The notes beneath the pieces are model-generated. The model was given only the letters and a program-made list of their open reading frames with translations, searched no databases and was not told the DNA's origin. A DNA stretch of 64,000 bases, from assembly GCA_963843575.1 (NCBI GenBank), contig CAWJKZ010000010.1:288001-352000 (forward strand), in the 5' to 3' direction. Within the stretch, counting starts at the first letter, position 1. Every line of letters begins with the position of its first letter. The stretch is from an uncultured Acidobacteriota bacterium. Lineage in GTDB: Bacteria > Acidobacteriota > UBA6911. Positions 2,575 through 62,738 of this stretch are shown here, piece by piece. Made by a program: the position numbers and the translations under genes.

Positions 2575-4718
2575 TTAGAAACTGAAGCGCAGCCCGAAAC
2601 GGAAGGTCCGCTGGTCGGCCTTGGCGCTGCTGATGGACATGAAATTCCCGTACGCCTTGACCGACCCGTCGCTATTGAAGGTCATGTCCGAAGCGGTGGC
2701 CGACGGGTTGTTGAAGTGCGGCGTGTTGGTGATGTTGAATCCTTCGGCCCGGAACTGCAGTTCCTTGCCCTCGGATATCCTGAAAGCCCGGAAGATTCCC
2801 ATGTCGGCGTTGATCATTCCGGGACCTTCCAGCCGGCCGGCCCCAAAGTTGCCGAAACGGACCGTCGTGATCGGCCTGAAGGCTAGCGGGTCGTAAAACT
2901 GAGTGCCCAGGCCGATGTTGCCGAGCTTCTGGATTTCGGGCAGCACCTGGTCGGGAGACTGGCTGCTGCCCGGGGTGTTCAGCGAGGAGCCGCTCGTCCC
3001 CACGCCGAAATAGGTGCCGCTCACGGCACTGAAGACGCCGTTGACCTGCCAACCGCCGAGCACCTTTCCGGCAATGCTGGATTTCATCCAGCGGCGGCCG
3101 GGTCCCCAGGGCAATTCGTAGATCCAGGCGGTGCGGAAGTTGTGCTTGCGGTTGAAAGCGCTCAAGGTCCGGTTGAGGTAGAACATCTCGGGGATGCCGA
3201 ACGGAGAGCTGCCGGATTCGAGGGATTTCGACCAGGTGTAGACCGTCTTCAGCATCAGGCCCGCGGTGAACCTGCGCTCCAGACTGGTCTGGAGGGAATG
3301 GTAGTTGGATTGAACCCAGGGCTGCAGGATGGTGGTCCGACCGACCGGCCCCACTTCTGGTAGAGAGGCCGGGCGGTGTTCCCGCCTCCGATGACGGTCA
3401 CATTGTTAATCGGCCAGCCTCCGCTGCTGACAATGTTGATGCTGGCCGTGCCGATGTATCCGACACTCCCGACGAGGTTGAACGGAAGCGGGCGCTCGTA
3501 GGTCAGGTTCCAGGACTGGATATAGCCCCTCCTGAAAAGGCCCTTGGGTAAGGAGCCGGTGCTGATGGTGCCCGGGATGTCAAGAACGCCCTTGGTGATG
3601 TCGGGCGTGGCGATGGGAGGGATGCCGTCGAGAATCGGCCAGACGGGGGTCCAGCTGTTGGCCCCCTGGTACGACGGCTGGATGACGGCAGGATAAGGGG
3701 GAACGCATCGGCCGGCCCAGGTTGTACGGGTCGAAGGTGATCCCGTAGCCGGTGCGGAGGACCCCGTGCTTGCCGAGCCGGTAGGCGATCCCCACGCGCG
3801 GCGCAAAGAGCTTCTTGCTGACGGTGGTGTCCGCATTCCAATCCACACCGCCGTAGCCACCGATCAACATCTTGTTGGTATCGGGGTCGTAGCGCTCGAT
3901 GCCGTGAAATCCCCGGTCCATGATCGGGTAGTACTCCCAGCGCAAACCGAGGTTGAGCGTGAGGTTGCTGCTGACCTGCCAACGGTCGCGGAAGTAAAAC
4001 GCGATCTGCCACTCGCGCGTCGACATCGGGTCGTAGAACTGGAGCGACTTCTGCACCTGCTGCGGCAGGCCGAGGAGGAAATCGGCAAAGCCGTTGAAGC
4101 GGTTGGAAGAAGGGCCGCCGTTGAGCGCGGTCGCACCGCCGTTGAAGGTGAAGTTCCCCGGGGTCCGTTGTTCGATTCCGGCTGCCAGTGGTTCATGCCG
4201 AAGCGACTGACGTCGGGTCCGAAGCGGATGTCGTGCTTCCCCTTGCTCCAGCTGGCGTTGGCCGAATAGGTGTACGTGTAGTCCCACCGGTCGACCGGCA
4301 CCCAGGTGTCGGTCATCCCCATCGACGCGTAGCCGCTAATGCTGAAAAACGGCATACCGCTCTGGCGCGGGTCGGGACCGTTGGTGCCGGGAATCTTCAA
4401 AACGTCCAATCCGAAGTTGACCCCGTAGTTCGGCTGCCGGACATGGTTGACGTACCGGGTGATTCCGATGGTGCCGTCGACGAGGAACCTGGGGGTCAGG
4501 GCGTAGTAGCCGCCGAGGGTGCCTACGTGCACACGGACGGTGCCCTTGCCCGCACCGCTGTCCGGAGTCAGCGCTGATCCGCCAGCTTCCCCGAACGCGT
4601 ATTGGGATTCCACGAGCGAGTTCATGAGGCTGTACTTGAACCAGATCGTGTTCTTCGGAGAGCGGACCCAATCGAACTTGAAGTCGTACATGTCCCGGTT
4701 GAACATCCGGGGTGCGGA
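2575..4718 (-). pseudogene. 5'-truncated diverged paralog (barrel portion) of the upstream TonB-dependent receptor
   Basis: Homology starts abruptly at SAPRMFNRDMYDFK (about residue 400 of the full gene) and runs to ...FRFGLRFSF stop; no signal peptide or plug; a few frameshifts. Confidence 0.85.
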
Positions 4719-4737
4719 GGCTCTCTTGCGGCTATCA

Positions 4738-4884
4738 TGGAAGTCGCGGCGGCTCGACTGGCTCGACACCGCTTTGTACGCGTCCCACGGCCGGAAAGCC
4801 CAGCGCCTCGGCAACTTCGCCGTGCTCTGGCGCCGAGGCGCCAACGACAAAGCGACGTCGAGCCAGTCGAGCCGCCGCACTCCA
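4738..4884. repeat. REP-like palindromic element, copy 2
   Basis: GCGGCGGCTCGACTGGCTCGACACCGCTTTG ... CAAAGCGACGTCGAGCCAGTCGAGCCGCCGCACTCCA. Confidence 0.8.
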
Positions 4885-4890
4885 AAATGA

Positions 4891-4924
4891 AACGGGCGCA
4901 GGCACCGCAGTGCCTGCGCCCGTT
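4891..4924 (-). terminator. Intrinsic terminator after full TonB receptor
   Basis: AACGGGCGCAGGCAC-CGCA-GTGCCTGCGCCCGTT, near-identical to 2517-2550. Confidence 0.75.
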
Positions 4925-4947
4925 GTACGACTGGTGGAAACCGCGCT

Positions 4948-7900
4948 CTAGAAGCTGAACCGCAGACCGAAACGGAAGGTCCGCTGGTCGGCGCGGGCGC
5001 CGGTGATCGACATGAAGTTGCCCGACGACTTGATGCTGCCGTCGGCGTTCAACGTCATGTCCGAAGCGCTCGCCGACGGGTTGTTGAAGTGCGGCGTGTT
5101 GGTGAGGTTGAACGACTCGGCGCGGAACTGCAGTTCCTTACCCTCGGTGATCCGGAAGGCCCGGAAGATACCGAAATCCAGGTTCACCATACCGGGACCG
5201 TACAGGGTGTTCCGCCCGGAATTGCCGAACCGGACGGCCGTCACCGGCCGGAAGGCGTTGGGATCGAAGAAGGGCACGCCTACCCCGATGTTCCCCAGTT
5301 TCTCGACGTTCTCCAGCACCTGGTCGGCCACCTGGTTGCTGCCCGCGGCGTTGAGCGAACTGCCGCTGGTGCCCACGGTGAACGGCGTACCGGAAACGGC
5401 GCTGAAGATGCCGTTGATCTGCCAGCCGCCGATGATGGCGCTGGCCAACCCGCCCTTGGCCCACCTGCGGCCCGGGCCCCACGGCATCTCATAGATGAAG
5501 GCCGTGCGGAAGTTGTGTCTGCCGGTCGAAACCGCTCGACGCCCGGTTGCGGTCCATGTACTCCGGCAACGCGAAGTAGAAGGTGTAGTCGGTCGAGTTG
5601 TTGTCGATCGAGTGCGACCAGGTGTAGACGGTCTTGAGCATCAGGCCCGCGGTGAACCTCCGTTCGAGGCTGGTCTGCAGCGAGTGGTAGATCGGATCCA
5701 GCCCAGGGCTGCAGCAGGTCGGTGGATGCCGTCCGGCCGAACTTCTGGTTCAGCGGCCGCCCGGCCTGGCCGGTGCCCGGCAGGGAGTTGTTCATCGGCC
5801 AGTACGGGCCGCTGACGATGTCGATGGCCTTCGTCCCGACGTAGCCGGCGCTGCCCACGAGGCTAAATGGCAGCGGGCGCTCGTAAGTCAGGTTCCACGA
5901 CTGCACGTAGCCCCTCTGGAACTGTCCCGGGGCCAAGGTGCGTGTGCTGATTTTGCCCGGTATCGGGATCGCTCCCTGGGTGATGTCCGGCGGTGTCGAT
6001 CACGGGGATGCCGTTCAGGATCGGACCATACGGCATGTAAGATGGTCGGCCCGTTGGCCGAGAACTGGATCACGGCCGGGTAGGGCGAACGCATCGGCCG
6101 GCCCAGGTTGTAGGGATCGTAGGTGATCCCGTACCCGGCCCGGATGACGCCGCCGGTGCCGAGCCGGTAGGCCAGCCCGAAGCGCGGCGCGAACAGCCTC
6201 TTGCTGACGGTCGTGTCGGCGTTCCAGTCGACGCCGCCGTACCCGCCGATCAGCATCATGTTGGTGTCGGGGTCATACCGCTCGATGCCGTGGAAGCCAC
6301 GGTCCATGAGCGGGTAGTACTCCCAGCGCAGCCCGAGGCTCAACGTCAGGTTGCTGCGTCACCTGCCACCGGTCGCGGAAATAGAACGCGATCTGCCACT
6401 CGCGCGTCGACATCGGGTCGTAGAACTGCAGCGACTTCTCGATGGTCTGCGGCAGACCGAGCAGGAAGTCGGCCATGCCGTTGAACCGGTTCGAGGACGG
6501 GCCGCCGTTCAGCGCCGTCGCGCCGCCGTTGAACGTGAAGGTGCCGCGCGGGCCGTTGCCCGACTCCGGCTGCCAGTGGTTCATCCCGTACCGGCTGATG
6601 TCCGGGCCGAAGCGGATGTCGTGCTTGCCCTTGCTCCAGCTCGCGTTGGCCGTGTACGTGTACGTGTAGTCGTGACGGTCGACCGGCACCCACGTGTCGG
6701 TCATCCCGAGCGCGCTGTAGCCGCTGATGCTGAAGTACGGCTTGCCGCTCTGCCGCGGGTCCGGGCCGTTCGTCCCGGGAATGTGCAGCACGTCGAGGCC
6801 GAAGTTGACCCCGAAATCGGGCTGGCGCACCGAGTTGACGTAGCGCGTCATGCCGATCGTGCCGTCGAGGAGGAACCGCGGCGTGACCGCGTAGTAGCCG
6901 CCGATCGTCCCCACGTGCACCCGCACCGTGCCTTTGCCGGCACCGCCGTCAGGCGACAGTGCCGATCCGCCCGCTTCCCCGAAGGAGTACTGCGACTGCA
7001 CCAGCGAGTTCATCAGGCTGTACTTGAACCAGATCGTGTTCTTCGGCGAACGCACCCAGTCCCCTTTGAAGTCGTACATGTCCCGGTTGAAGACCCGGGG
7101 GGCCGACGTGTAGAAGTTCTGGGTGAACCCGTCGAGGTTGGGCAGCGGCTGCAGCGCGAGCATCTGCTTCGCCACGCTGCTGATCCGGCTGTCAGGGATA
7201 ATGTTGCCCGCAAACTGGGTTCGGTTCTTCCCAAGGGAATCGCCCGTCGTCGGGTCGTAGATCTTCGTACCCGTGGCGCTGAAATCCCCGCTGCGCATCG
7301 CCTGGGTCGCCACCGTGTAATAGGACGAGTAGTTCTGGCGGTCCCTCATCCCGTCGTAGTTGGCGAAGAAGAACAGCTTGTCCTTGATGATCGGCCCGCC
7401 CACGTTGCCGCCGTACATGCTCAGCAGGTACTTCGGCGCCTGGCTCGTCTGCGGCGTGAAGAAGTTCTTCGCGTCGAACACGTTGTTGCGGTGATACAGG
7501 AACCCGACGCCGTGGATCTCGTTGGTCCCCGACTTGGTCTGCACCGTGATCGCCGCGCCCCCCGCCAAACCCTGCTCCGCGTCGAAGCTGTTGGTCGAGA
7601 TGTTGACCGTCTGAATCGATTCCTGCGGCGCCACGTACGCCGCGTGGTGCGGCAGCCACGGCATGATGTTCAACGCCCCGTCCAGCCGCGTGTTGTTGTT
7701 GAAGCGCCCCACCCCGTTGATGTTGGTCGTCAGCGACCGCGCCGGCGTGTCCACGCTCGCATTCTGGAAATTCGACGGCGTCGAACCCGGCACGAGGTCG
7801 ATGAGGCTCTGGTAGTTGCGATAATTGCCCAGCGGCAGGTTCGTGACCTCCTTGGTGGACAGTTCCTTGTGCACGTCCGCCTTGTCGGTCTGCAGCACCG

Positions 7901-8303
7901 TCGCCTCCGCCGACACCGTCACCATCTCGGTGCGCGAGCCGACTTCCAGCGCCACGTCCGTCCGCGTGATGTTGTTGACCGTGACCTCGATGTTCTCCTT
8001 GACGTACTCCTTGAAACCCTGCAGAGACACCTTGAGGGTGTAGACCCCGGGCTGCAGGTTCGTGAACGTGTACGCCCCAGAGGCATTCGAGACCGTTTCG
8101 TGTGTCTGGTTGGTGTTCTTGTTGGTGACCGTGATCCCCGCCCCGGGAATAACCGCCTTGGACGGGTCTGTGATGTTGCCCACCATGGTGCCGTACAGCA
8201 CCTGCGCCCATGCCGGCTCCGGCTGGACGCAAGTCGCGACCACCCCAAGGCAACCGAGACAAAGAAGCGCAAAACCTATCTTCCTTTGAAACTCTCTTGC
8301 CAT
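4948..8303 (-). CDS. TonB-dependent receptor, Oar-like with carboxypeptidase-regulatory N-domain (several frameshifts)
   Basis: Signal peptide ...AWAQVLYGTMVGNITDPSKAVIPGA, plug TKSGTNEIHG, LGLRWEYY, APRFGLAY, C-terminal FRFGLRFSF; pieces in ORFs 6273-8327, 5888-6343, 5280-5936, 4948-5487. Confidence 0.9.
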
Positions 8304-8522
8304 CTTCCATCCTCCTGGCAGGATCAATAGCCTAAGGTAAAACCGCGCTAGACTAGCACAGGTCAGAAAGGAAACTAAAGCAAAGAAACATTATTTGACA
8401 CCATTAATTTTGCTAATAGGGGCAACATCGAGCTCTTTTCGCCCTGCGGAGACTTGCTTTAGTTTTCTTTTTTAAACGTTGGATTGGCGCCGGCAACAAG
8501 GGAGGCGGCGCAGGCGGGTCAA

Positions 8523-29161: not shown

Positions 29162-30319
29162 TTATATCCGAGCCATGCCGACTCTCGATTGCCTGAGGCG
29201 CGGCTCCCTCTGCACGTTTGAAAGGAGCGGGTCCCGCTGGAACCAATCCGCCCTCTCGTCTTCGGCCCGCACCGCGCGGTCCAGCCAATCCAGAGATTTG
29301 GTCTCGTCACCCAGGACGGCATAGAACTCGGCGACGTTTGATGCGACCATGATCAGCTCCCCGAATTTGAGCACCTCCAAATCCATTCCCCGCGCCGCGT
29401 CCGCACGCTTTCCTTCCACCGCCAGTTGAAGCGCCCACAGCAGCCGCGCCTGGTAATTCTGCGGCTCCAGGACTCGGGCCCTGGCCAACGCCTCACGCGC
29501 CCCAGCCAAATCGCCTTCAGTCTGGTATGCCATCGCCAAGGAGGCCAGCGCCAACATGTTCTTCGGATCTTGTTCCAGGACCTTCTGCTGCTCCCGAATC
29601 GAGCCCGCCGGGTCTCCCGTTTGCCGCAGGTTGTCGCCAAAGTTGACTCTCGCGGGGAAGAACATAGGGTTGGAATCGAGGAGCGGCTTGAGCAAGGCCT
29701 GGGATTCCGCGTACTCACCGTTCCACGTATGATAGAGCGCGAGAAAATTGGGGCCGTCCTTCTCGTTTGGATCGAGCTCGATAGCTCTCTTGGCCTCCAG
29801 CGCTGTGAGCTCCTTTCGCCCCTGATAGAAGTAGACCAGCGCCAGCGAAGCATGCGCCCGGGCCGATTGGGGATCGTCCTGCAAGGCGCGCCGCAACTCT
29901 TCCTCGGCTTTGTACAGCCAGGAAGTGTCGTTGGATTGACCGGCATCGATGAATAGGGCGTGGGTGAATCCGTACCAGGCCCGGGCGTGGGCGAACCGGG
30001 GATCCAGGTCGAGCGCCTTCTCGAGCATCTGCCTCGCCCGGGGCAGGTCCTGCTGGGTCTCCAAAAACAGCATCGCCCGCTGGAAATATTCGTTGGCTTC
30101 GGAAACCTTCGACGACGACGGGGCATAGCGGTGCTGCCCCTGCCATCGCAGAATTCCCACGAATGTTGCCGCGGCAAGTGTCAGCGCACCAGCGGTCGTC
30201 CACAACCAGCGGCGCCGCCTGATCGGCGGGGATGGCCGGGTTTCGGCTACCCGCGCGGGAGCCTCGATCATCTCGATCGCCGCCCTCACCTCTCCTCCGC
30301 GCTGGTGCCACCACGACAC
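29162..30319 (-). pseudogene. TM + TPR region of a kinase-TPR protein, kinase domain missing
   Basis: Begins with kinase-terminal-like HQRGGEVRAAIE; TM; TPRs (LEKALDLDPRFA, AIELDP); ends near DPLLSNV..EPR. Confidence 0.65.
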
Positions 30320-30453
30320 GATCCGCGAGCTCGACCCGCAGCTTCACACCCATGCCGTGGCCGCGGAACGCGTATTGTTCCCAAATGTTCCTAAATTCGA
30401 TAAAAGTCGAAGTATCGGGGAGCTTGTAAACTGATGGCGCTAAATGATTTAAG

Positions 30454-30529
30454 TGGAGGCGCCGAGCGGATTCGAACCGCTGCATAAAGGTTTTGCAGAC
30501 CTCTCCCTTAGCCACTTGGGTACGGCGCC
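30454..30529 (-). tRNA. tRNA-Cys(GCA)
   Basis: GGCGCCG acceptor stem, CTGCAAA anticodon loop, GGTTCGAATCC, encoded CCA. Confidence 0.97.
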
Positions 30530-30554
30530 TTAAAGGAGGACGGTGGCGAGCAAC

Positions 30555-30583
30555 ATTGTAGTCAACTTGCCGCTGAACCGCAA
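30555..30583 (-). promoter_or_regulatory. sigma70 promoter of tRNA-Cys
   Basis: TTGCGG-17-TACAAT. Confidence 0.65.
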
Positions 30584-30641
30584 GGTGTACGGGTCTTCGG
30601 AGTGTTTTGGGGGCGGGGGCGGGCCGTCCCCGCCCACCTCG

Positions 30642-33407
30642 TCAGTGGATAAGGCGGAGGCCCGGTGGGAGCGCCTCGCCAAACACACGCTGTTCGTCGG
30701 CCTCTCCCAGTTCCGCGACTTCGCGCACCATCCGGACCCACCCCGCAGGTGCGCCCGCGGCCTCGAGGTGCCGCACCACGCGGCCGCGCAGGTCCGGGTC
30801 GACGTCTCGTTCCCGGTCGCCGCTCATGCGTGCGATGAGCGTCGAGGCAAAGGCGGCCGGGACGACGTTTTTCCAATCGAGCCGGAGCAGCTGTTCGAGC
30901 CACTCCGAGGCCACGCCCGCGGGGACGACCGCATGCGTGCTGCCATAAAACGGGACGCGCGCACCGAGCCGGCCGACCGCCCACCAAGTTTCCACCGACT
31001 CGGCCGGCTTCTTCAATCGCTCGAGCAGCCACCCTCCCGCCTCGACCTTGGTGTCAGCTGGGACGCGCTCGAGCGCGCCGGCAAGCCGCACCATGTCTTC
31101 GTAGCCGGCCTTCCGGGGGCCCGGGGCGCGCCTGGAGGCATCCTTAGGCTGCAGCTCAGTTGCGATCTCCTCGAACAGCCGCTGCTGCGCTTGCCGATCC
31201 AGCCCGCCCGCCACCCGGCGCCACAGGGTCCACCACTCCGACCAGGTGCGGGTCTCGCGTGTATGCTGCACACCCTGTTCGTGGATCGACCAGAGCAGTT
31301 GGATGCGCCAGTCGTCAAGCGGGTAGCCGAATCCCGGCCGCAGGCAGTAGCCGGCCAGGCTGAACCAGACTCGCTCGTGATCGGGCGAGCGGCGCCGGCG
31401 GCGCACCCCGTCCCAGAGGGAGCCGAACAGCTCGCGCAGCAACGGCGTTTCCCAGCGATCGCGTTCGCCGAGGACGCCTTCGAGGCTGCGGCGCAGGTTC
31501 TTCGCCTCGCGCAGCTCGACATCGCGCGCCCGCGACCCGTAGACCCGTTCGACGAGGGCTGCGGCCTGATCGAACCCGGGATGCAGCGAGTCCGCAATCG
31601 TCACGGGCGCCTTCGCCCCGCTGCGCAGCTGAAACTCGAAATGCCAGCGCCGAGACGGGTCTGCGTCAGCCACGCACCCGACCTGCAACGTCCCGACCTC
31701 CGTCAGGGCCGCCGCCAGCCGGACCGGCACTTCTTCCGCGCCCGATCGCTCTTCCAGCACCGCGGCGACCGGGGGCAGCGCGGTGTAGCCCCGTTCATCC
31801 ACCTGAACGACGTCCCCGGCCTCCACCGGGCGGTCGCCGGTCGAGGACACCAGGTGGAAACGCACAGGCTGCCCGAGCCTCAGCGAGAAGGCGCGGTCCG
31901 CCAGCAGGATCTCCTTCCCCTCCTCGGCGCCGCGCGGCAGAAGGCAGACGGCCTCCTGCACCCCCGGGGTCTGGGAATCGAGCAGGAGGAAGTAGCTGCG
32001 CGCCGATCCACCTCCGATGCGGATGCCTTGCCCGCGCCGCGCCAGGCCGTAAGCGACGGCGCCGCGCGCGACCGCCAGATCGGGGGTCTCGTTGTCGAGC
32101 AGCGCGACCGGGCCGCCGCGCCAATCCTGGAGCACTTCCACCAGGCGCCGGGCCAGCAGCCTGCCGCGAAAGACGCCGCCGTTGAGTAGCATCGCGTCCG
32201 GGAAGGCCGGGGAATCCTCCGTGCCCAAGGCGTCGCGGCAGGCGTGGGCATGACCCGCGAGGAAAGCCGCCAGGTGACGGGTGACGGAGGGGTCGGCGGC
32301 GTAGGGTAATCCGAACTCGACAATCCCGCCGCGCAGGCTTTGCGGTCTGTCCTCGGACGCCACGCGGGGGAAGAAACCTTCCACCAGCGCCTGCCGGACC
32401 TCCTCCCGCGTCAACACGGCCGAGCGCGCCCCCGCGACGAGGCGTGCCCCGGCACCGAGCACGGTCACGGTGGCGGATTCCGGAGCATCCTCGGGGGCAA
32501 GCAGCCGCTCCTTGGCGCCGCGGCACTGCTGGATGAGCTGGGACAGGTCTGCGGCCCCGAGCTTCGCCCCCGACTTCACGATGCGCGCCTCGGCCAGATG
32601 CGCGAGCGCGAGGTCCATGTTGTCGCCGCCGAGCATGAGGTGGTCGCCGACGCCGATGCGCACCAGTCGCGGTTGGCCTGTGCCCTGTTCGACCTTGATG
32701 AGGGTGAAGTCCGTGGTCCCGCCCCCCACGTCGCACACCAGCAGCAGCCGCACTCCGCCCAGCGCTCGTTCAAGTTCCGCGCCGTGGCGTGCGAGCCAGT
32801 CGTAGCACGCCGCCTGCGGCTCCTCGAGCAGGCGCACGCGGGCGAGGCCCGCCAGGGCCGCGGCCTGGACGGTGAGGGCCCGCGCGGATTCGTCGAAGGA
32901 TGCGGGGACCGTCAGGACGATCTCCTGCTCCTGCAGCGGGTCGGCCGGAAACCTGTGGTTCCACGCCGCACGCAGGTGCGCGAGATAGCTTGCGCTCGCG
33001 TGCAGCGGCGAGATCCGGGCGACATCGCCGGGCGCGCCCCAGGGAAGAATCGGTTCGGTCCGGTCGACGGAGCGGTGTGACAGCCAGCTCTTGGCGCTCG
33101 ATATGAGGCGGCCGGGGACGCGCGAGCCAAACTCGCGCGCCAGTTCCCCGACAACACCGGCGGGCAGGTGCAACGCGAGATCCGGATTCGGCCAGGGGAG
33201 CGCAACGTCGTCCGGGGCCACTTCCCCTTCGCCCGGGTGGTAGCGGAGCGAGGGGAGCAGCGGGCGTCGGCCGACCTCGCCGGGCGCGACCAGCTGCTCG
33301 ATCTCAAACAGCGCGGGCGACGTCTGGCCCGGCCCGTCGATCGCGGCGAAGGCAGCCACCGTGTGGGTGGTGCCCAGATCGATGCCGACCAGGTAGCGCG
33401 CCATCAC
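30642..33407 (-). CDS. Atypical Hsp70-family protein with C-terminal DUF3731-like helical domain
   Basis: GIDLGTT, SAKSWL, TVPASF, EEPQAA, DVGGGTTDF, LGGDNMD; C-term GYCLRPGFG..LDDWR, WWTLWRRVAGGL, GRLGARVPFYG. Confidence 0.9.
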   Translation of the reverse strand: MMARYLVGIDLGTTHTVAAFAAIDGPGQTSPALFEIEQLVAPGEVGRRPLLPSLRYHPGEGEVAPDDVALPWPNPDLALHLPAGVVGELAREFGSRVPGRLISSAKSWLSHRSVDRTEPILPWGAPGDVARISPLHASASYLAHLRAAWNHRFPADPLQEQEIVLTVPASFDESARALTVQAAALAGLARVRLLEEPQAACYDWLARHGAELERALGGVRLLLVCDVGGGTTDFTLIKVEQGTGQPRLVRIGVGDHLMLGGDNMDLALAHLAEARIVKSGAKLGAADLSQLIQQCRGAKERLLAPEDAPESATVTVLGAGARLVAGARSAVLTREEVRQALVEGFFPRVASEDRPQSLRGGIVEFGLPYAADPSVTRHLAAFLAGHAHACRDALGTEDSPAFPDAMLLNGGVFRGRLLARRLVEVLQDWRGGPVALLDNETPDLAVARGAVAYGLARRGQGIRIGGGSARSYFLLLDSQTPGVQEAVCLLPRGAEEGKEILLADRAFSLRLGQPVRFHLVSSTGDRPVEAGDVVQVDERGYTALPPVAAVLEERSGAEEVPVRLAAALTEVGTLQVGCVADADPSRRWHFEFQLRSGAKAPVTIADSLHPGFDQAAALVERVYGSRARDVELREAKNLRRSLEGVLGERDRWETPLLRELFGSLWDGVRRRRRSPDHERVWFSLAGYCLRPGFGYPLDDWRIQLLWSIHEQGVQHTRETRTWSEWWTLWRRVAGGLDRQAQQRLFEEIATELQPKDASRRAPGPRKAGYEDMVRLAGALERVPADTKVEAGGWLLERLKKPAESVETWWAVGRLGARVPFYGSTHAVVPAGVASEWLEQLLRLDWKNVVPAAFASTLIARMSGDRERDVDPDLRGRVVRHLEAAGAPAGWVRMVREVAELGEADEQRVFGEALPPGLRLIH

Positions 33408-33410
33408 GCG

Positions 33411-35247
33411 TCAGCTCTCCGACGAACCGCGCACGTTGAATTCGACCCCCCACCTCTCGGGCCCCTGGCGCGGCGAGGCCTCGAGCTTCAGGGTGCCGAC
33501 CTCGGTCACGCGCGCGTGCAGCGTCACCGGCACGATCTCGCCGGGGCTGCGCCCGTCGGCCGGCAGCTCTGCCTGGATCGCTTCCAGTTCCTCCAGCTCG
33601 CCGGCGCCCCAATCCTCGAGCAGGGTGCCGACCTCGTCGTGCCGGCGCACCGTGGAGCCGAAAAAACGGAAGCGGACGGGCTGGCCGATCACAAGCCCCA
33701 ACTGGCGGCCGGGGAGCGCGGCCTCGGTCCCCTCCTCCATGCCGAACGGGGCGACACAGAGCGCGTGCACCGGGGGCTCGATGCCGGGGACAGCCGGGAC
33801 AGCGCTCTCGACGCCGACATAGTAGGCGCGCGCGGTCCCCCCGCGGATGCGGACCCCGCGACCCCGGCGGACGCAGCCGTAGTAAGCCGCGCCCCGGGCG
33901 ACCGCCAGATCCAGGTCCGCGCCCTGCCAGCATCCGGGCGGGCTCCGCCCCGGCATCCCGCAGCCAAGCGCCGATCACACCGGAGACGCGTTCGACAAGG
34001 GCGCCGGCCTTGAAAACGCCGCCGTTGAACAGCACGGCGGTCGGCCGGATGAAGCCGGTCCCGGCCCCGAACCCTTGCAAGTCGGCGGCCGCCTCCAGCT
34101 GACGCCCCAGGAATCCCGCCAGGTGCCGCGTGATCGCGGGGTCCTGCGCGTAGGGCAGCCCCACCCGGGTCAGGGCGGTTCTCGCCCGCGCCGCGGGCCG
34201 GGCGGAAACCTCGACCATGGGGAAGAAGCCTTCGATCAGGGTCTCGACGACCTCTTTTCGGGTGAGCTCGGTCCGGACGGTCTTGCCGACCAGCCGCGAG
34301 CCGCGGCCCGGCACCGCTATTGGGCAGGACTTCGTCCCGGCGTCGGACAGCAGCGTCTCCTTCGCCGCGCGGCAGCCGTGGGTCAGCGCCTGGAGCTGCC
34401 AGCCGTCCAGCTCCTTCCCTTCCCTGCTCAGCTTGGCCTTCACCACGTGCGCCAGCGCCAGGTCCATGTTGTCGCCGCCCAGGAGGATGTGATCGCCGAC
34501 CGCGATGCGGCGGAGCTCTACGGAGCCGTCGCGATCGGTGACGGCGATCAGGGAGAAATCGGTCGTGCCGCCGCCCACGTCCACCACCAGGACGACGTCG
34601 CCGGGTTTCACCTGCGCGCGCCACGAGTCGCCGCCGGCGTGGATCCAGTGATAGAAGGCGGCCTGCGGCTCCTCGAGCAGCGCCATTCTCTCGCAACCGG
34701 CCTGCGCGGCCGCCTCGGCCGTCAGCTCCCGCGCGGCCGGATCGAACGAGGCCGGGACCGTGAGGATGACGTCCTGCTCGCGCAGCGGGGCGTCCGGGTG
34801 TGCGAGGTCCCAGGCCTCGCGCATGTGGGCCAGGTACCGGACGGATGCCTCGAGGGGCGATACGCGCCTCACCTCGTCGGGAGCGTCGAGGGGCAGGATC
34901 GCGGCGCGGCGGTCCACCCCGGCGTTCGAGAGCCAGCTTTTGGCGCTCGACACGAGCCGGATCGGCGTGGCGGCGCCGCGCGTGCGCGCGAGTTCCCCGA
35001 CCAGGACGTCGGAAGAGGCGTCCCACGGCAGCCCGAGATCCGAGGCCGACATCTCCTCGGGGTGCGGCAGATAGAGGAACGAGGGGAGCAACAGCCGCTC
35101 CTCCACGCTGCCGGGGGCTGTCAATTGGGGTATCGTCATCGTCTCGACCGCGGCCCTGTCCTGCTCGGTCTGGGCAAGATCCGTAAAGGACATCGCACAG
35201 TTGGTGGTACCCAGGTCGATCCCCACGGCGTAACGCGCGTCGGTCAC
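33411..35247 (-). CDS. Atypical Hsp70-family protein (one frameshift near 33925)
   Basis: GTG start overlapping upstream stop; same NBD motifs; C-term continues in ORF 33411-33956 (DLAVARGAAYYG...TEVGTL). Confidence 0.9.
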
Positions 35248-35808
35248 AGTTCTACCTCCGCCGGGGCGAGAATGCGTGTGTCGTGGGTCCGGGAGACCTT
35301 GGGCAACTTCACCTCGGCCGCGCGCCATCCGCGATGGATCAGGCTGCCGGTAAAGGGCGCCCTGCCGACGACGTTGCCGGTCAGCCGGACGGAAGAGGGA
35401 TCGAACCCGTCCTGCAACGTGACCCGGCTTCCTTCGGGCTCGTTTCGCAGCGGCACGATCGAGAAGTGGTCGCGCACCGCCTTGCGGCAGCCTTCGTGCA
35501 CGACGCGCGCCGCAGCCCCGATCTCCGCGTCGGAAAAAGCGGACACGTCCTCCTCGAGGAAATCGATCAGCCGCCCCTCCTGCTGCAGCAGGCCGAGAAG
35601 CTGCAGGGCTGCGTCCGGCGCCGCTGTGGAAAAGCCGGGCGCCGCGCCCGGCGCCGGTTTTGCCTTGCCCGGCGCGACCGGGGCAGGCGCAGGCGGGCGC
35701 AACTGCTTCTCAATAGCCGCGGCGGTCTCGGGCTCCGAAATCGTGCGGAAAAACGCGGCGAACGCCAGCGACAGGCGCTTGAAGAAACGGGAGGCTCGGC
35801 TCGGTCAT
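35244..35808 (-). CDS. DUF2760 family protein (frameshift after codon ~7)
   Basis: AGGAG RBS, MTEPSLP/FFKRLSLAFAAFFR, Pro/Ala linker, LQ.EGRLIDFLEED, IGAAAR.VH, GFDP, HRGW, APAEVEL. Confidence 0.85.
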
Positions 35809-35953
35809 CTCTGCTCCTAGAAAGTGTCGCAGGAATCATAGATGGTCACGCGACTGCCTCCAAGGGGTCTCGGGGGCCTAAGAGATGAATTTCAGGGGTC
35901 ACTCCGAGGCTCGAAGGGCCCTAAGAATCTCGAAGATAGCCCCGAACTCGCAG

Positions 35954-35983
35954 TTGATTCGTAAGCAGGTCTTTTGGTAGAAT
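35954..35983 (+). promoter_or_regulatory. sigma70 promoter of tRNA-Gly
   Basis: TTGATT-18-TAGAAT with extended TG and GC-rich discriminator. Confidence 0.7.
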
Positions 35984-35995
35984 GGCCCGCCAAGA

Positions 35996-36070
<75 letters not shown>

Positions 36071-36348
36071 TTCCAATCTGAACTCCCCAACAGCTTAGCG
36101 AAAGACAAGAACGACAGGCGGACGCGTTTGTAGGGGCCTGCCGGGCGCCTCGCGGCATCGCCCGCAAGTGGCGGTACAGATCCGCGACGGCGTAGGTCAC
36201 TACCGCAAAAAAAGTCAAACGCGGCAGATCTCGTGAAGTTTGGACGGGGATTTTCGCGGTTCCACGCGGATATTGACCTTGTGACAGGCCGCGTGAATCG
36301 GTCGAATCCGTGGAATCCGCGTCCTGTTGTGTTACTCGGTGACCGGCC

Positions 36349-42032: not shown

Positions 42033-43658
<1,626 letters not shown>

Positions 43659-43679
43659 TTAGAGCTCCTTAAGTTAAGC

Positions 43680-43991
43680 TTACTTGGTTGCCTTCTTCGC
43701 GGCCGCTTCCATCACAGCCAGGATTTCCTCTTCCCTCATGATCACGTAATCCTGATCGTCGATCTTGATCTCCGTTCCGGCGTACTTCCCGAACAGAACC
43801 CGATCTCCAGGCTGCACATCCATCGCCGAGCGCTTCCCGTCTTCCTGCAGCTTGCCCGGTCCGACCGCCACGATTTCGCCCTCCATCGGCTTCTCTTTCG
43901 CGGTATCGGGGATGATGATGCCACCCTTGACGACTTCTTTTTCCTCGATCCTCTTCACGAGAACACGATCGTGCAAAGGTCTTACTTGCAT
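43680..43991 (-). CDS. groS: Co-chaperonin GroES
   Basis: [21 protein letters not shown]. Confidence 0.99.
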
Positions 43992-44060
43992 GGGATTGAT
44001 CTCCTTTCCTGGTTAGTTCCTCTTGTTCTAAACAACTAAAAAGGAATAACTTACAATTCT

Positions 44061-44087
44061 TTAGCACTCACCTCATGCGAGTGCTAG
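44061..44087. promoter_or_regulatory. CIRCE (HrcA operator)
   Basis: TTAGCACTC-N9-GAGTGCTAG, one mismatch to consensus. Confidence 0.95.
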
Positions 44088-60306: not shown

Positions 60307-60394
60307 GCGGTACCCGGGATTTTCCCGGGCAACCGGTACGATCCCGAAATTTTCCTTAATGTAACGCCTGTTTATGCGGTAATTTCGTCGCGCA

Positions 60395-60410
60395 TGGCGC
60401 GACGGTTGCA
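60395..60410 (+). promoter_or_regulatory. sigma54 (-24/-12) promoter
   Basis: TGGCGC-GACGG-TTGCA upstream of the cytochrome gene. Confidence 0.7.
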
Positions 60411-60544
60411 TGGTGTTGCTGTTTGCCCTGCCCGCGCTGCGAACTCGTCCGTCTCAGGGTCCGGGATCCGGGAGAATCTGGGGCGCCGCGCCGTGCGAGT
60501 TCGCTGGTAGTCGGGCGAGGCAGGAAGCCACAAAAAGGAAAAGC

Positions 60545-62738
60545 ATGAACCGCGCGTTTGCCAACCGAGCAGCAAAGGTGCTGTCGCATCGACCTGTGAG
60601 AACCGGCCTCAGGCTCCTGTTCGCGCTCTCTGTGGCCGCGTTGGTGCCGGCCGCAGCCCAGGCGCAGAAGGCCGAGGAGTGCCTCGCCTGCCACGGCGAC
60701 CGGACGCTCACGATGCAGAAGGGTGGACGGATCGTGTCGCTTTTCGTGGACAAGGCCCGGCTGCAGCAGTCCTCTCACGCATCGGTGGATTGTGTCGACT
60801 GCCACCAGGGGATCAAAGCCTCCGAGGTGCCCCACGCCAGGGTCGTGCCTTCGGTCGATTGCCAGCCCTGCCACGACATCGGCGGCTTCGAAAAGAGCGT
60901 GCACGGGAAATCGCAGTCCGTCCCGTCCGGCAGGAATCAGCGACCCGTCGTGGCCGCCGCGTGCAAGGAGTGCCACGGCACCCACGACGTGCTGTCGCCG
61001 AAGGACCCGAAATCCCGCACCAACCCGGCGCACATCACGAACACGTGCGGGAAGTGCCACGCGGACGAAGACACCCGTTTTTCCGGCTCCGCTCACGGGA
61101 TTGCACTCAAGCAGGGGGTCAAAGGCGCGCCGAGCTGCATCGACTGCCACGGCGAACACAACGTGGAACCGGTGCTGTCGAAGGAATCCCCCGTCTACAA
61201 GACGCGCGAAGCCAAGGTCTGCCTCAACTGCCACCTGAACAACCCCGACGTGCGCGGTCGTGTCGGTCCTTCGGCGGGATTTATCGAGGCCTACGAATCG
61301 AGCGTGCACGGCGTGGCGCTGGCGTCCGGAAACGAGAAGGCGGCGACCTGCAGCGACTGTCATGGCGCGCACGACATGAGGAAGTCGAGCGACACGGCTT
61401 CGAAAGTAAACAAGTGGAAAATCCCGGGGACCTGCGGTCAGTGCCACAGTGACATCGCGGGCGTGTACAGCAGCAGCATTCACGGGACGGCCCTGCAGCG
61501 GGGCAACAACGACGCACCGTCGTGTACCGACTGCCACGGCGAGCATCAGATCTTCTCCCCGAAAGACCCGCGCTCGCGCGTGGCGCCCAAAAACGTCTCG
61601 GCCCAGGTTTGCGCCACCTGCCACAACTCGGTCCAGCTCAGCGCGAAATACGGCATCCCGAACGAGCGGTTCCGCACCTTCGCCGACAGCTATCACGGGC
61701 TGGCTTCCCGCGGCGGTTCCGTCGAGGTCGCCAACTGCGCCAGCTGCCACGGCGTGCACAATATCAAGCCTTCGACGGATCCCAGCTCGACCATCAGCAA
61801 AGCCAACCTGGCCAACACCTGCGGACAGTGCCACCCGGGCGCGAGCGAGAACTTCACCAAGGGTGCGGTGCACGTCGTTCTCGCCAAGGAGAGCGACGCA
61901 ATCCTCTACTGGATCCGGACCTTTTACATCGGGCTGATCGTCGTGACGATCGGCGGCATGATCCTGCACAACGTCTTCGATTTCGTGAAGAAATCGAAGC
62001 AGCACATCGCCGTGCGCGCCGGCCTCCTCCCCCAACCCCGCCACGGCGGCGCCCAGTTCGTCCGGATGACGCTCAACGAGCGCCTGCAGCACGCCACCAT
62101 GTTCAGCAGCTTCATCGTGCTGGTCATCACCGGCTTTATGCTGAGATACCCCGATTCGTGGTGGGTCATCCCGATCCGGCAGATTGAGCGAGAAGGCGTT
62201 CGAGGTGCGCAGTCTTGCCCACAGGACGGCCGGTCTCGCGATGGTGGCAGTCAGCCTGTACCACCTCTGTTACCTGGCCATATCCCCGCGGGGACGGCAA
62301 TTGGTGCGCGACCTGTTCCCGAACTGGAAGGACGGACGGGACGTACTGCAAGTGATCCTGTTCAACCTGGGCCTGGCGAAGTCTCGACCCCTCTTCCACC
62401 GCTTCGCATACATGGAAAAGGCCGAGTACTGGTCACTGGTCTGGGGCGTCGTCGTCATGGCCGGCACCGGTTTCATCATGTGGTTCGACAACTTCTTCAT
62501 CAACCTCTTCACCAAGCTCGGCTGGGACATCGCACGGACCATCCACTTTTATGAAGCGGTGCTCGCGACGCTGGCCATCATCGTGTGGCACTTCTACTTC
62601 GTGATCTTTAGCCCTTCCGTCTACCCCATGAGCACGGCGTGGCTCACCGGAAAGATCACCGAGGAGGAAATGGAGGAGGAGCACCCGCTGGAACTCGAAG
62701 AGATCCGGTCGCGGGAGGAGGAGGAGCAGGAGGGGTAG
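60545..62738 (+). CDS. Multiheme cytochrome c (13 CxxCH) fused to cytochrome b (CbcL-like); frameshift near 62185
   Basis: 13 CxxCH counted; then TM helices with ERLQH, AHR, EKAEYW, IHFYEA, VWHFY. Confidence 0.9.

Follow-up and report, generated by a model that had tools for sequence, protein, structure and literature searches.

We analysed a stretch of 64,000 nucleotides, referred to as the window, from contig CAWJKZ010000010.1 of an uncultured Acidobacteriota bacterium (positions 288,001 to 352,000 of the forward strand, GenBank assembly GCA_963843575.1). According to the reading of open reading frames (ORFs), three co-oriented genes on the minus strand at 30642-35808 form a compact cassette. 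They encode a DUF2760 protein, a lid-less Hsp70-like ATPase (H1) and a longer Hsp70-like ATPase with a C-terminal DUF3731 domain (H2). A first-pass annotation made from the sequence had described the trio as a self-contained, atypical Hsp70 machine. Here we report that DUF2760 and DUF3731 co-occur strictly among the genomes sampled, that the catalytic residues of both ATPases are invariant and that the cassette entered this lineage horizontally. We propose, tentatively, that it is a specialised Hsp70-type machine that would work at the inner face of the cytoplasmic membrane or close to it.

Gene content and domain architecture

The coordinates of the genes, domains and flanking tRNA genes are listed in Table 1. 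The DUF2760 and H1 genes share a GTGA stop/start overlap, which can be read directly in ...CTGTGACC... and places the H1 start codon, a GTG, at 35247, while H1 and H2 are separated by a gap of 3 nt (TGA-CGC-GTG). Both junctions are thus as the first-pass annotation had them. The DUF2760 query frame (35247-35804) matched PF10816 over profile positions 2-124 of 124 (E 6.3e-55). The first 442 codons of H1 (33922-35247) matched PF00012 (HSP70) with 65.2 bits and H2 (30645-33407) with 51.6 bits, against a cut-off of 20.6 bits. The match of H2 to PF12531 (343.1 bits against a cut-off of 25) extended over residues 674-919 of 921 and the whole profile, positions 1-248 of 248.

The same families are found in the same order in the catalogued PF10816/Hsp70/PF12531 cassette, in which PF12531 goes by the name "DNA-K related protein", for example MXAN_5321-5323 of Myxococcus xanthus, with similar protein sizes of about 190, 610 and 920 amino acids and junctions that overlap or nearly abut. 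The window copy, which scores far above both of the Pfam cut-offs, differs from these in nothing essential. It is distinguished by its occurrence in a probable member of the Acidobacteriota, where the cassette is rare (4 of 201 genomes, counting the unpublished genome G028 as a non-match in this and all other tallies of the phylum), by grouping with proteobacterial versions and by two single-base frame breaks. The trio had been put down as a recognised neighbourhood with no demonstrated function, and the cassette is indeed catalogued with no mechanism assigned. No paper naming DUF2760 or DUF3731 was found in the literature searched.

As in the DnaK-DnaJ-GrpE system, both ATPases consist of an actin-like nucleotide-binding domain (NBD) with all phosphate-binding and catalytic motifs followed by a sandwich resembling the beta part of the substrate-binding domain (SBD). 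The motifs singled out previously (GIDLGTT, SAKSWL, EEPQAA, DVGGGTTDF, LGGDNMD, AVARGA, G[VI]RI[RG]GG and TEVGTL) are all present in the translations, and most of them are invariant in the family alignments. In an alignment of 64 H2 sequences, the invariant residues include D10, G12, T13, K106, E195-E196, D226 and G228-T231, and in an alignment of 19 H1 orthologues they include D11, G13, T14, K103, E192-E193, D223 and G225-T228. The earlier statement that both paralogs retain the ATPase residues therefore extends to their families. Since the phosphate-binding loops and the catalytic Lys, Glu and Asp residues are invariant, both H1 and H2 should hydrolyse ATP.

Membership in the Hsp70 superfamily is evident from the PF00012 matches, the invariant motifs and a Foldseek match to DnaK (E 2e-23). 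Both proteins nevertheless score far below every curated NCBIfam family: the DnaK equivalog TIGR02350 gave 60.3 bits for the N-terminal part of H1 and 52.2 bits for H2 against a cut-off of 822.55, and the HscA family TIGR01991, whose cut-off is 708.55, gave 77.7 and 81 bits. The AlphaFold2 model of H2 (pLDDT 89.9, pTM 0.90) contains an NBD that extends to about residue 460, a beta domain at about 470-592, a disordered segment at 593-605 and a helical domain at 612-910. In Foldseek alignments of about 620 columns, the NBD and the beta domain of the model matched DnaK and BiP in lid-truncated, compact, domain-docked structures (6zmd_A, TMt 0.73, root-mean-square deviation (rmsd) 5.1; 7kzu, TMt 0.71, rmsd 5.6). 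The SBD-beta-like domain suspected from the sequence is thus seen in the H2 model, and by similarity to H2 and the orthologues H1 probably has one as well.

A hydrophobic interdomain linker of the VLLLD type is a canonical feature of DnaK and is also seen in the DnaK of this genome (LLLLDVTP). H1 and H2 have GVRIRGG and GIRIGGG instead, a replacement that had been pointed out before and that holds against both the organism's own DnaK and the family alignments. The R and the I of the linker are each kept in 19 of 19 H1 sequences, and the I in 59 of 64 H2 sequences, such that the linker is close to fixed as R-I-x-G-G in H1 and for the most part retained as I-x-x-G in H2. As also noted earlier, H1 has no helical lid, and its chain stops about 10 residues beyond the last region of beta strand. 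Compared to the DnaK-DnaJ-GrpE system, the differences are therefore the G-[VI]-R-I-x-G-G linker, the missing lid, the sub-cut-off scores and, in the surroundings, the lack of linked dnaJ and grpE genes and of a controlling inverted repeat of chaperone expression (CIRCE).

In the place of the lid, H2 has about 310 residues of helical structure after the beta domain, in accordance with the earlier description. When modelled alone, the DUF3731 region reached a pLDDT of 94.7. The Foldseek comparison that had been suggested for this domain gave no match in the PDB at E <= 1e-3, and VIA-align recovered armadillo, importin and catenin solenoids (Z 14.2-10.4). Because Foldseek was empty and VIA-align gave only broad armadillo/HEAT matches, DUF3731 is predicted to be a generic armadillo/HEAT-like alpha-solenoid with no specific relative. 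The domain is rich in arginine (13.5%) and tryptophan (4.8%) and has a net charge of +3 (family median +7, range 0 to +15), whereas the NBD and the beta domain of H2 are net negative (-9 and -5). The tail of the protein, FGExLPxGLxL, is conserved, with L in 64, P in 64 and G in 63 of 64 sequences.

The pair of Hsp70 paralogs, one of them long and with a helical extension, resembles the eukaryotic arrangement of Hsp110 and Hsp70 with the exchange factors HspBP1, Fes1 and Sil1, and the extension is armadillo-like, as is HspBP1. There is, however, no homology beyond the shared Hsp70 NBD. The extension of Hsp110 is a three-helix-bundle lid and not a solenoid. HspBP1 (1xqr_A) ranked 33rd among the structural neighbours of DUF3731 in VIA-align (Z 11.6, rmsd 5.4, 221 residues aligned), a degree of similarity that dozens of unrelated armadillo proteins share.

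The DUF2760 protein begins with an amphipathic helix, continues with a linker rich in Pro and Ala and closes with a conserved C-terminal domain of about 120 residues that ends in AEVEL. The N-terminal segment is conserved as PSFxxRxxLAFxxFF, the linker is variable and the residues of the A-E-V-E-L end are kept in 58, 58, 59, 59 and 55 of 59 sequences. The first 18-mer of the window protein has a hydrophobic moment of 0.66, the highest in the protein (median 0.28). No transmembrane segment was found in the window's DUF2760 protein, whereas gammaproteobacterial versions start with a transmembrane-like helix. Neither a comparison of the DUF2760 profile with PDB sequences (best E 2.2) nor a search of the protein atlas, where there is no DUF2760 model, gave a usable match.

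In 32 longer relatives, DUF2760 is always the C-terminal domain. It is fused to a Ser/Thr kinase domain in two metagenomic proteins (P0288 and P0289), to TPR repeats in one protein from Polyangiaceae (P0292) and to an antiporter fragment in one. Since a variable N-terminal module is joined to a constant C-terminal domain with a free, conserved tail, we infer that DUF2760 may be an adaptor, in which the variable module would determine its placing. The adaptor-like build of DUF2760 with its nearly invariant AEVEL end and the basic, armadillo-like DUF3731 solenoid are described here for the first time. An apparent fusion of DUF2760 to an Hsp70 (P0287) was considered as Rosetta-stone evidence and rejected; since the last 12 positions of the DUF2760 profile are missing from it, it looks like a frameshift artefact at the overlapping junction.

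Table 1. Positions of the cassette genes, the domains of H2 and the flanking tRNA genes in the window.
Feature	Position	Strand	Evidence and remarks
DUF2760 gene	35244..35808	-	PF10816, 184.8 bits against a cut-off of 25; one extra base near 35784 breaks the frame
H1, lid-less Hsp70-like ATPase, about 611 aa if read through	33411..35247	-	PF00012, E 4.7e-18 on aa 1-442
H2, intact 921-aa Hsp70-like ATPase with C-terminal DUF3731	30642..33407	-	PF00012, E 5.9e-14; PF12531, E 1.6e-102
H2 NBD, about aa 1-460	32028..33407	-	Secondary structure of the model; invariant catalytic residues in 64 sequences
H2 beta domain, about aa 470-592, SBD-beta-like, after the G-I-R-I-G-G-G linker	31632..32000	-	All-beta in the model
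H2 armadillo/HEAT-like solenoid (predicted), aa 612-921, DUF3731	30645..31574	-	Model with pLDDT 94.7; VIA-align
tRNA-Gly(GCC), upstream flank of the cassette	35996..36070	+	ARAGORN
tRNA-Cys(GCA), 113 nt downstream of the H2 stop codon	30454..30529	-	ARAGORN; same arrangement in G001

Frame breaks in the deposited sequence

Two of the three cassette genes are interrupted by single-base frameshifts in the deposited sequence, the DUF2760 gene near 35784 and H1 at 33921. Alignment to a genome of the same genus (G001, 86% identity) placed both breaks as one extra base in the window, and G001 reads straight through both sites (MTEPSLPFF... and ...ARMLEGADLDLAV...). The ATG at 35808 has an AGGAG 5 nt upstream, at 35818-35814, and is one base out of the DUF2760 frame. 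The last 169 codons of H1 (33414-33920) sit in another frame and align to intact orthologues with 42-74% identity. Outside the two single-base events, the frames of the cassette are open. The first-pass annotation was right in that the genes of the trio are real, but it passed over the two frameshifts silently.

Frame breaks also affect other genes of this assembly, which carries many single-base indels. Both dnaK copies of the genome (G000:C13:589757-591543 and G000:C14:191907-193571) are broken: the one in a grpE-dnaK-dnaJ group is split into two frames, and the other has profile positions 45-82 in a different frame and a C-terminus that appears to be out of frame. At 2578-8390 of the window, two genes for TonB-like outer-membrane barrels are fragmented, with the pieces aligning one after another along a single Pfam profile. 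In G001, the corresponding 5.3 kb of the cassette contain 47 indel events, located elsewhere than the breaks in the window. Because both dnaK genes are broken likewise, the outer-membrane genes are split, the indels of G001 lie elsewhere and a good Shine-Dalgarno sequence precedes the out-of-frame ATG, both frameshifts are most likely errors of long-read assembly, and the cassette is consequently taken as intact in the organism.

If both frameshifts were real, the cassette would be a decaying pseudogene relic in this organism. This would account for the interruption of two of the three genes and would suit a cassette that is foreign to the lineage and dispensable elsewhere. Sequencing runs compared with both break sites showed neither indels nor a clear contig spanning 33921 or 35784. 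We nevertheless consider decay very unlikely given that both dnaK genes and the outer-membrane protein genes of the window are frame-broken in the same assembly, that the congener has its breaks elsewhere, with an uninterrupted frame at both sites in question, and that the frames are open everywhere else in the cassette.

Distribution, co-inheritance and horizontal history

DUF3731 was found in at least 1624 cluster representatives (E <= 1e-3) among 1.84 billion, with full-length relatives of 870-1000 amino acids that have the domain at their C-terminal end, and at least 7973 stand-alone homologues of DUF2760 were found. As the genomes are titled, the cassette is present in at least nine phyla, and the 30 cassette-type loci come from Pseudomonadota, Acidobacteriota, Planctomycetota, Verrucomicrobiota, Rokubacteria, Bdellovibrionota, Desulfobacteraceae and Chlamydiae. 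The order DUF2760-H1-H2 is kept in 22 of the 30. The incomplete loci comprise one with H1 and H2 and no DUF2760 hit, three with H2 alone, three with DUF2760 and H1 only, and one in which H1 is cut at the contig end with no H2 after it. Among 18 loci with crude ORF calls, DUF2760 and H1 share 4 nt at their junction in 8 and a single nucleotide in 3.

All four genomes with loci lacking a DUF2760 hit (three with H2 alone and one with H1 and H2) encode DUF2760 elsewhere, and all four genomes with loci lacking H2 (the three with DUF2760 and H1 and the one cut at the contig end) encode DUF3731 elsewhere. In the phylum, PF12531 and PF10816 are found in the same 4 of 201 genomes, on the same contig and about 4.5 kb apart. 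The trees of H1 and H2 are congruent. The co-occurrence of the two families at the genome level is strict, even where the genes are unlinked, which is new here, and the genes do not occur independently in the genomes sampled, a check that the first-pass annotation had called for. Its view of the cassette as a self-contained module is borne out by this co-occurrence, by the genomes with split loci and by the congruent trees, which together show co-inheritance.

The cassette has a patchy distribution in the group to which the window belongs. At the DNA level, only the same-genus genome shared it among 31 relatives searched, and in the family it is present in 6 of 51 genomes and 3 of 11 genera. 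The GC content of the cassette is 0.68-0.73, as compared to 0.58-0.65 in neighbouring stretches. Quick maximum-likelihood trees, one for H2 and one for H1 with 22 rows each, placed the window copy with G245 and G229, and this group adjoined 11 rows from Pseudomonadota (SH-aLRT 100 and 99), whereas G203, from the same phylum, grouped in both trees with a metagenome-assembled genome (MAG) titled Acidobacteriota. Forcing the five phylum members together cost 127.8 log-likelihood units (p-AU 5e-8), for a constrained group that was named after the tree had been seen. From the tree grouping, the rejected monophyly of the phylum, the patchy occurrence and the GC content, we conclude that the cassette was acquired horizontally in this lineage and travels as a unit. 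By contrast, DUF3731 is present in 99 of 101 sampled genomes of the genus of the Vibrio locus L021, as a single copy in 97 and split into two pieces in 2. This pattern, core in one genus and horizontally spread elsewhere, is also new here.

Both here and in G001, the cassette is located between the genes for tRNA-Gly and tRNA-Cys. These are 5.5 kb apart in the window and close together in G019, G020 and G021; in G006 (G006:C1:837528-837823) they are 120 bp apart on one strand, downstream of cysS, with nothing between them. Distances of about 4 kb and 9 kb were seen in G005 (G005:C69:42420-46610) and G008 (G008:C6:267306-276487). The tRNA pair looks like a variable insertion spot. Compared with cysS and tRNA-Cys, the tRNA-Gly gene of the window points the other way. 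An insertion between tandem tRNAs with no further change was considered and rejected because the two genes are on one strand in G006 and on opposite strands here, which indicates that a local rearrangement accompanied the insertion. Around the cassette copies in G245 and G229, about 5-8 kb to each side are free of tRNA genes.

Horizontal movement, flanking tRNA genes, a deviating GC content, patchiness within the family and the phylum and the rejection of phylum monophyly are also what one might expect of an anti-phage or conflict system, in which the ATPase pair would sense infection and DUF3731 or DUF2760 would be the effector. The first-pass annotation had held such a role plausible. The PADLOC matches to PDC-M61B were weak (E 1.8e-6 and 1.5e-3) and covered about 95 of the 588 positions in its profile, and one related locus, L022, has PDC-S26 and PDC-M05B as neighbours. 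There was, however, no full-length match to any of the 5027 models in PADLOC-DB 2.0, and neither DUF2760 nor the C-terminal part of H1 gave a hit. Specific candidate-defence neighbours were confined to L022 among the 19 related loci and absent from the 10 neighbouring ORFs in the window; the remaining hits among the 106 flanking ORFs were to generic helicase, kinase, AAA and sigma domains, so the proposed enrichment in defence islands was not seen. No nuclease, protease, TIR, pore or other effector domain was found in the cassette with Pfam or by structural comparison. Being near-universal and mostly single-copy in the Vibrio genus, DUF3731 is also unlike defence genes, and the published knockout discussed below is described, in the portions of that study that bear on it, as having stress and sporulation phenotypes. 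A defence function is thus highly improbable.

Proposed function and alternatives

No J-domain or GrpE gene is adjacent to the cassette in the window, as had been stated, and none of the 96 flanking ORFs in the 19 related loci encodes such a protein; these ORFs represent unrelated housekeeping and metabolic genes. The genome itself encodes five J-domain proteins on other contigs, two DnaK and two GrpE proteins, with one GrpE on contig C13 and the other on the contig of the window, about 180 kb away. That the cassette would act independently of J-domain proteins is suggested by this gene neighbourhood only.

The single CIRCE-like site in the window is located at 44061-44087 (1 mismatch, 0 expected by chance). 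It belongs to a groES-groEL operon at 42036-44087 on the minus strand, where TTAGCACTC-N9-GAGTGCTAG lies about 70 nt upstream of groES (43680-43994), implying heat-shock control of the HrcA type in this genome. The window scan for CIRCE, which did not cover sigma-32-type promoters, found none upstream of the cassette, matching the earlier observation on both operons. A promoter scan of 30300-36300 gave no sigma-70-like site on the minus strand, and the sole promoter-like site belongs to tRNA-Gly. The same scan found no canonical terminator. Directly after the H2 stop codon, a GC-rich hairpin with no T tract, GGGCGGGG-ACGG-CCCGCCCC, lies at 30530-30641 on the minus strand, and tRNA-Cys comes next. 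The hairpin may act as a terminator of a non-canonical kind or mark a processing site. Elsewhere in the window, at 60383-62735 on the plus strand, a gene for a multihaem cytochrome c (c7, c3, paired CXXCH) is followed in an overlapping frame by one for a cytochrome b561-like membrane subunit, which may represent another frame break or a true overlap.

Counterparts in print are the adjacent M. xanthus genes MXAN_5321 (DUF2760 domain-containing protein), MXAN_5322 and MXAN_5323 (both Hsp70-family), as listed in Data Set S2 of Pan et al. 2021 (PMC8265645). In the accessible text of that study, deletion of MXAN_5323, a 925-aa Hsp70, gave viable cells that moved, preyed and fruited normally; the mutant sporulated less, fewer of its cells survived H2O2, and it had no defect under heat, cold or osmotic stress (PMC8265645). 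According to the same text, MXAN_5323 cannot replace dnaK and does not complement E. coli dnaK (PMC8265645). Upon heat shock, the fragments per kilobase per million (FPKM) values given there for MXAN_5321-5323 changed from about 70 to 81, 70 to 116 and 60 to 40 (PMC8265645). With no CIRCE and with little or no heat induction of the Myxococcus counterparts, the earlier suggestion that the cassette is not heat-shock regulated finds support.

We propose that the cassette encodes a specialised machine of the Hsp70 type that is self-contained and works at the inner face of the cytoplasmic membrane or close to it, as neither a heat-shock nor a defence system, and assign this reading a probability of somewhat less than one half (about 0.45). 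DUF2760 would be the adaptor or co-factor, placed by its variable N-terminal module. In the window this module would be an amphipathic helix and in gammaproteobacteria a true transmembrane helix, and in rare cases it would be a fragment of the kinase, TPR or transporter type. Beyond the flexible Pro/Ala linker, the constant C-terminal domain with the free AEVEL end would recruit or regulate the Hsp70s, acting first of all on the translationally coupled H1. H1 and H2 would be active ATPases having beta substrate-binding domains with no lid and the G-[VI]-R-I-x-G-G linker; because this linker replaces the hydrophobic one of DnaK, the allostery driven by J-domain proteins is probably rewired. In H2, the basic armadillo-like solenoid would replace the lid and dock a dedicated client, an anionic surface or the NBD of the partner. 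The role would be an accessory one, in stationary-phase, developmental or oxidative-stress proteostasis of particular clients. All physical contacts, the membrane association and the role of the tails are inferred. The H1-H2 heterodimer and the exchange-factor role of DUF2760 suggested by the first-pass annotation are putative.

The build of DUF2760 can be likened to that of J-proteins, which also combine a variable targeting module with a constant module that engages Hsp70, although the constant part of DUF2760 would be an unrelated fold of about 120 residues with the AEVEL end. A bolder version of the proposed machine, which we regard as doubtful, is that DUF2760 represents a new class of Hsp70 co-factor that would take the place of a J-domain protein in recruiting and switching on the lid-less Hsp70 pair. 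The conserved tails of DUF2760 and H2 (LPxGLxL) might then be tethered pseudo-substrates that chain the trio together at the membrane.

Alternatively, H1 and H2 could be Hsp110-like co-chaperones of DnaK that act by NBD-to-NBD contacts in nucleotide exchange or disaggregation, with DUF2760 only placing them. A 2026 review, in the sections seen, refers to bacterial DnaK derivatives as unexplored "dark matter" and proposes such Hsp110-like NBD-NBD contacts with DnaK for them in general, as an untested idea (PMC13580251). Moreover, the genome has the two DnaK, five J-domain and two GrpE proteins with which such co-chaperones could work, the long paralog with its helical C-terminal extension recalls the layout of Hsp110, and the armadillo-type exchange factor HspBP1 is among the structural neighbours of DUF3731. 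We find this unlikely, since H1, H2 and DUF2760 co-occur far more strictly than the role requires, both paralogs retain a beta substrate-binding-like domain and no dnaK, dnaJ or grpE gene is linked to the cassette in the 19 loci, while the HspBP1 match lies within a crowd of generic armadillo proteins. Overexpression of MXAN_5323 is also described, in the part of the Myxococcus study concerned, as not permitting deletion of the essential dnaK and as having almost no effect on the behaviours and growth assayed (PMC8265645).

The cassette might also be a regulatory switch, in which the Hsp70 pair would retain a signalling protein at the membrane or let it go, comparable to the regulatory Hsp70s StkA and yeast Ssz1. 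The fusions of DUF2760 to a Ser/Thr kinase or to TPR repeats point in this direction, but they amount to 3 of 32 long forms as against the thousands of stand-alone homologues. In L027 (L027:6581-9274), a MAG from Acidobacteriota, the cassette is immediately followed by a gene for a Ser/Thr kinase with PD40 repeats, and in the window a TPR-repeat protein gene (29165-30343, minus strand) lies directly downstream of tRNA-Cys on the strand of the cassette; the flanking genes are otherwise unrelated across the 19 loci. In Vibrio cholerae, the operon VC1373-1375, which includes the "DnaK-related protein" VC1374, is listed among in-biofilm-repressed genes in the relevant portion of one report (PMC9201469), and the passages concerned in another describe binding of the quorum-sensing regulator HapR upstream of VC1375 and activation of the promoter in vivo and in vitro (PMC10328515). 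By its name and the genus-wide presence of the cassette, this operon is a candidate counterpart.

StkA of M. xanthus offers a precedent for a non-heat-shock Hsp70 that acts as a regulator; it is, however, described in the text available as a protein of 540 aa with SCP2- and PhaE-like neighbours, and thus comes from a different module (PMC4319316). For the same reason, StkA was rejected as a published knockout of the cassette. Together with HscC and HscA of E. coli, it is, as far as the sources describe these proteins, a non-heat-shock, non-essential Hsp70 paralog with a shortened or altered lid and a dedicated role, as we propose for the cassette proteins, but all three are without a DUF2760 partner, a second tandem Hsp70 and a DUF3731 domain. 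On balance, we judge a switch of this kind to be distinctly unlikely.

Several observations weigh against the proposed membrane-associated machine. The organism has canonical DnaK, DnaJ and GrpE, and the cassette could cooperate with these. The Myxococcus phenotypes are mild and, in the portion of the study that reports them, common to deletions of three unrelated non-canonical Hsp70s (PMC8265645), and therefore point to no specific client; the DUF3731 domain of MXAN_5323 is itself presumed from its length, annotation and DUF2760 neighbour. DUF2760 has no detectable relative of known structure or function, which makes the adaptor role an argument from architecture, and the membrane association is drawn from a hydrophobic-moment calculation and N-termini from a few loci. 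The armadillo fold is generic, and according to the VIA-align warning Z values below about 13 can reflect a common helical-repeat arrangement. We found no physical interaction among DUF2760, H1 and H2 in print. Finally, the sequencing runs, which shared at most 0.16 of the words and included no RNA run, provided no clear cover of 33921 or 35784.

Dependence on J-domain proteins and exchange factors is generally regarded as a universal feature of Hsp70s. The cassette pairs Hsp70s with a small partner with no known fold, and in the 19 loci no J-domain or GrpE genes are linked to it. The window itself contributes one more copy, acquired horizontally, in an error-rich assembly. For the family, the strict co-occurrence, the adaptor-like DUF2760, the basic solenoid predicted for DUF3731 and the contrast between core and horizontally spread occurrence make the system directly testable by ordinary biochemistry in those laboratory species in which it occurs.

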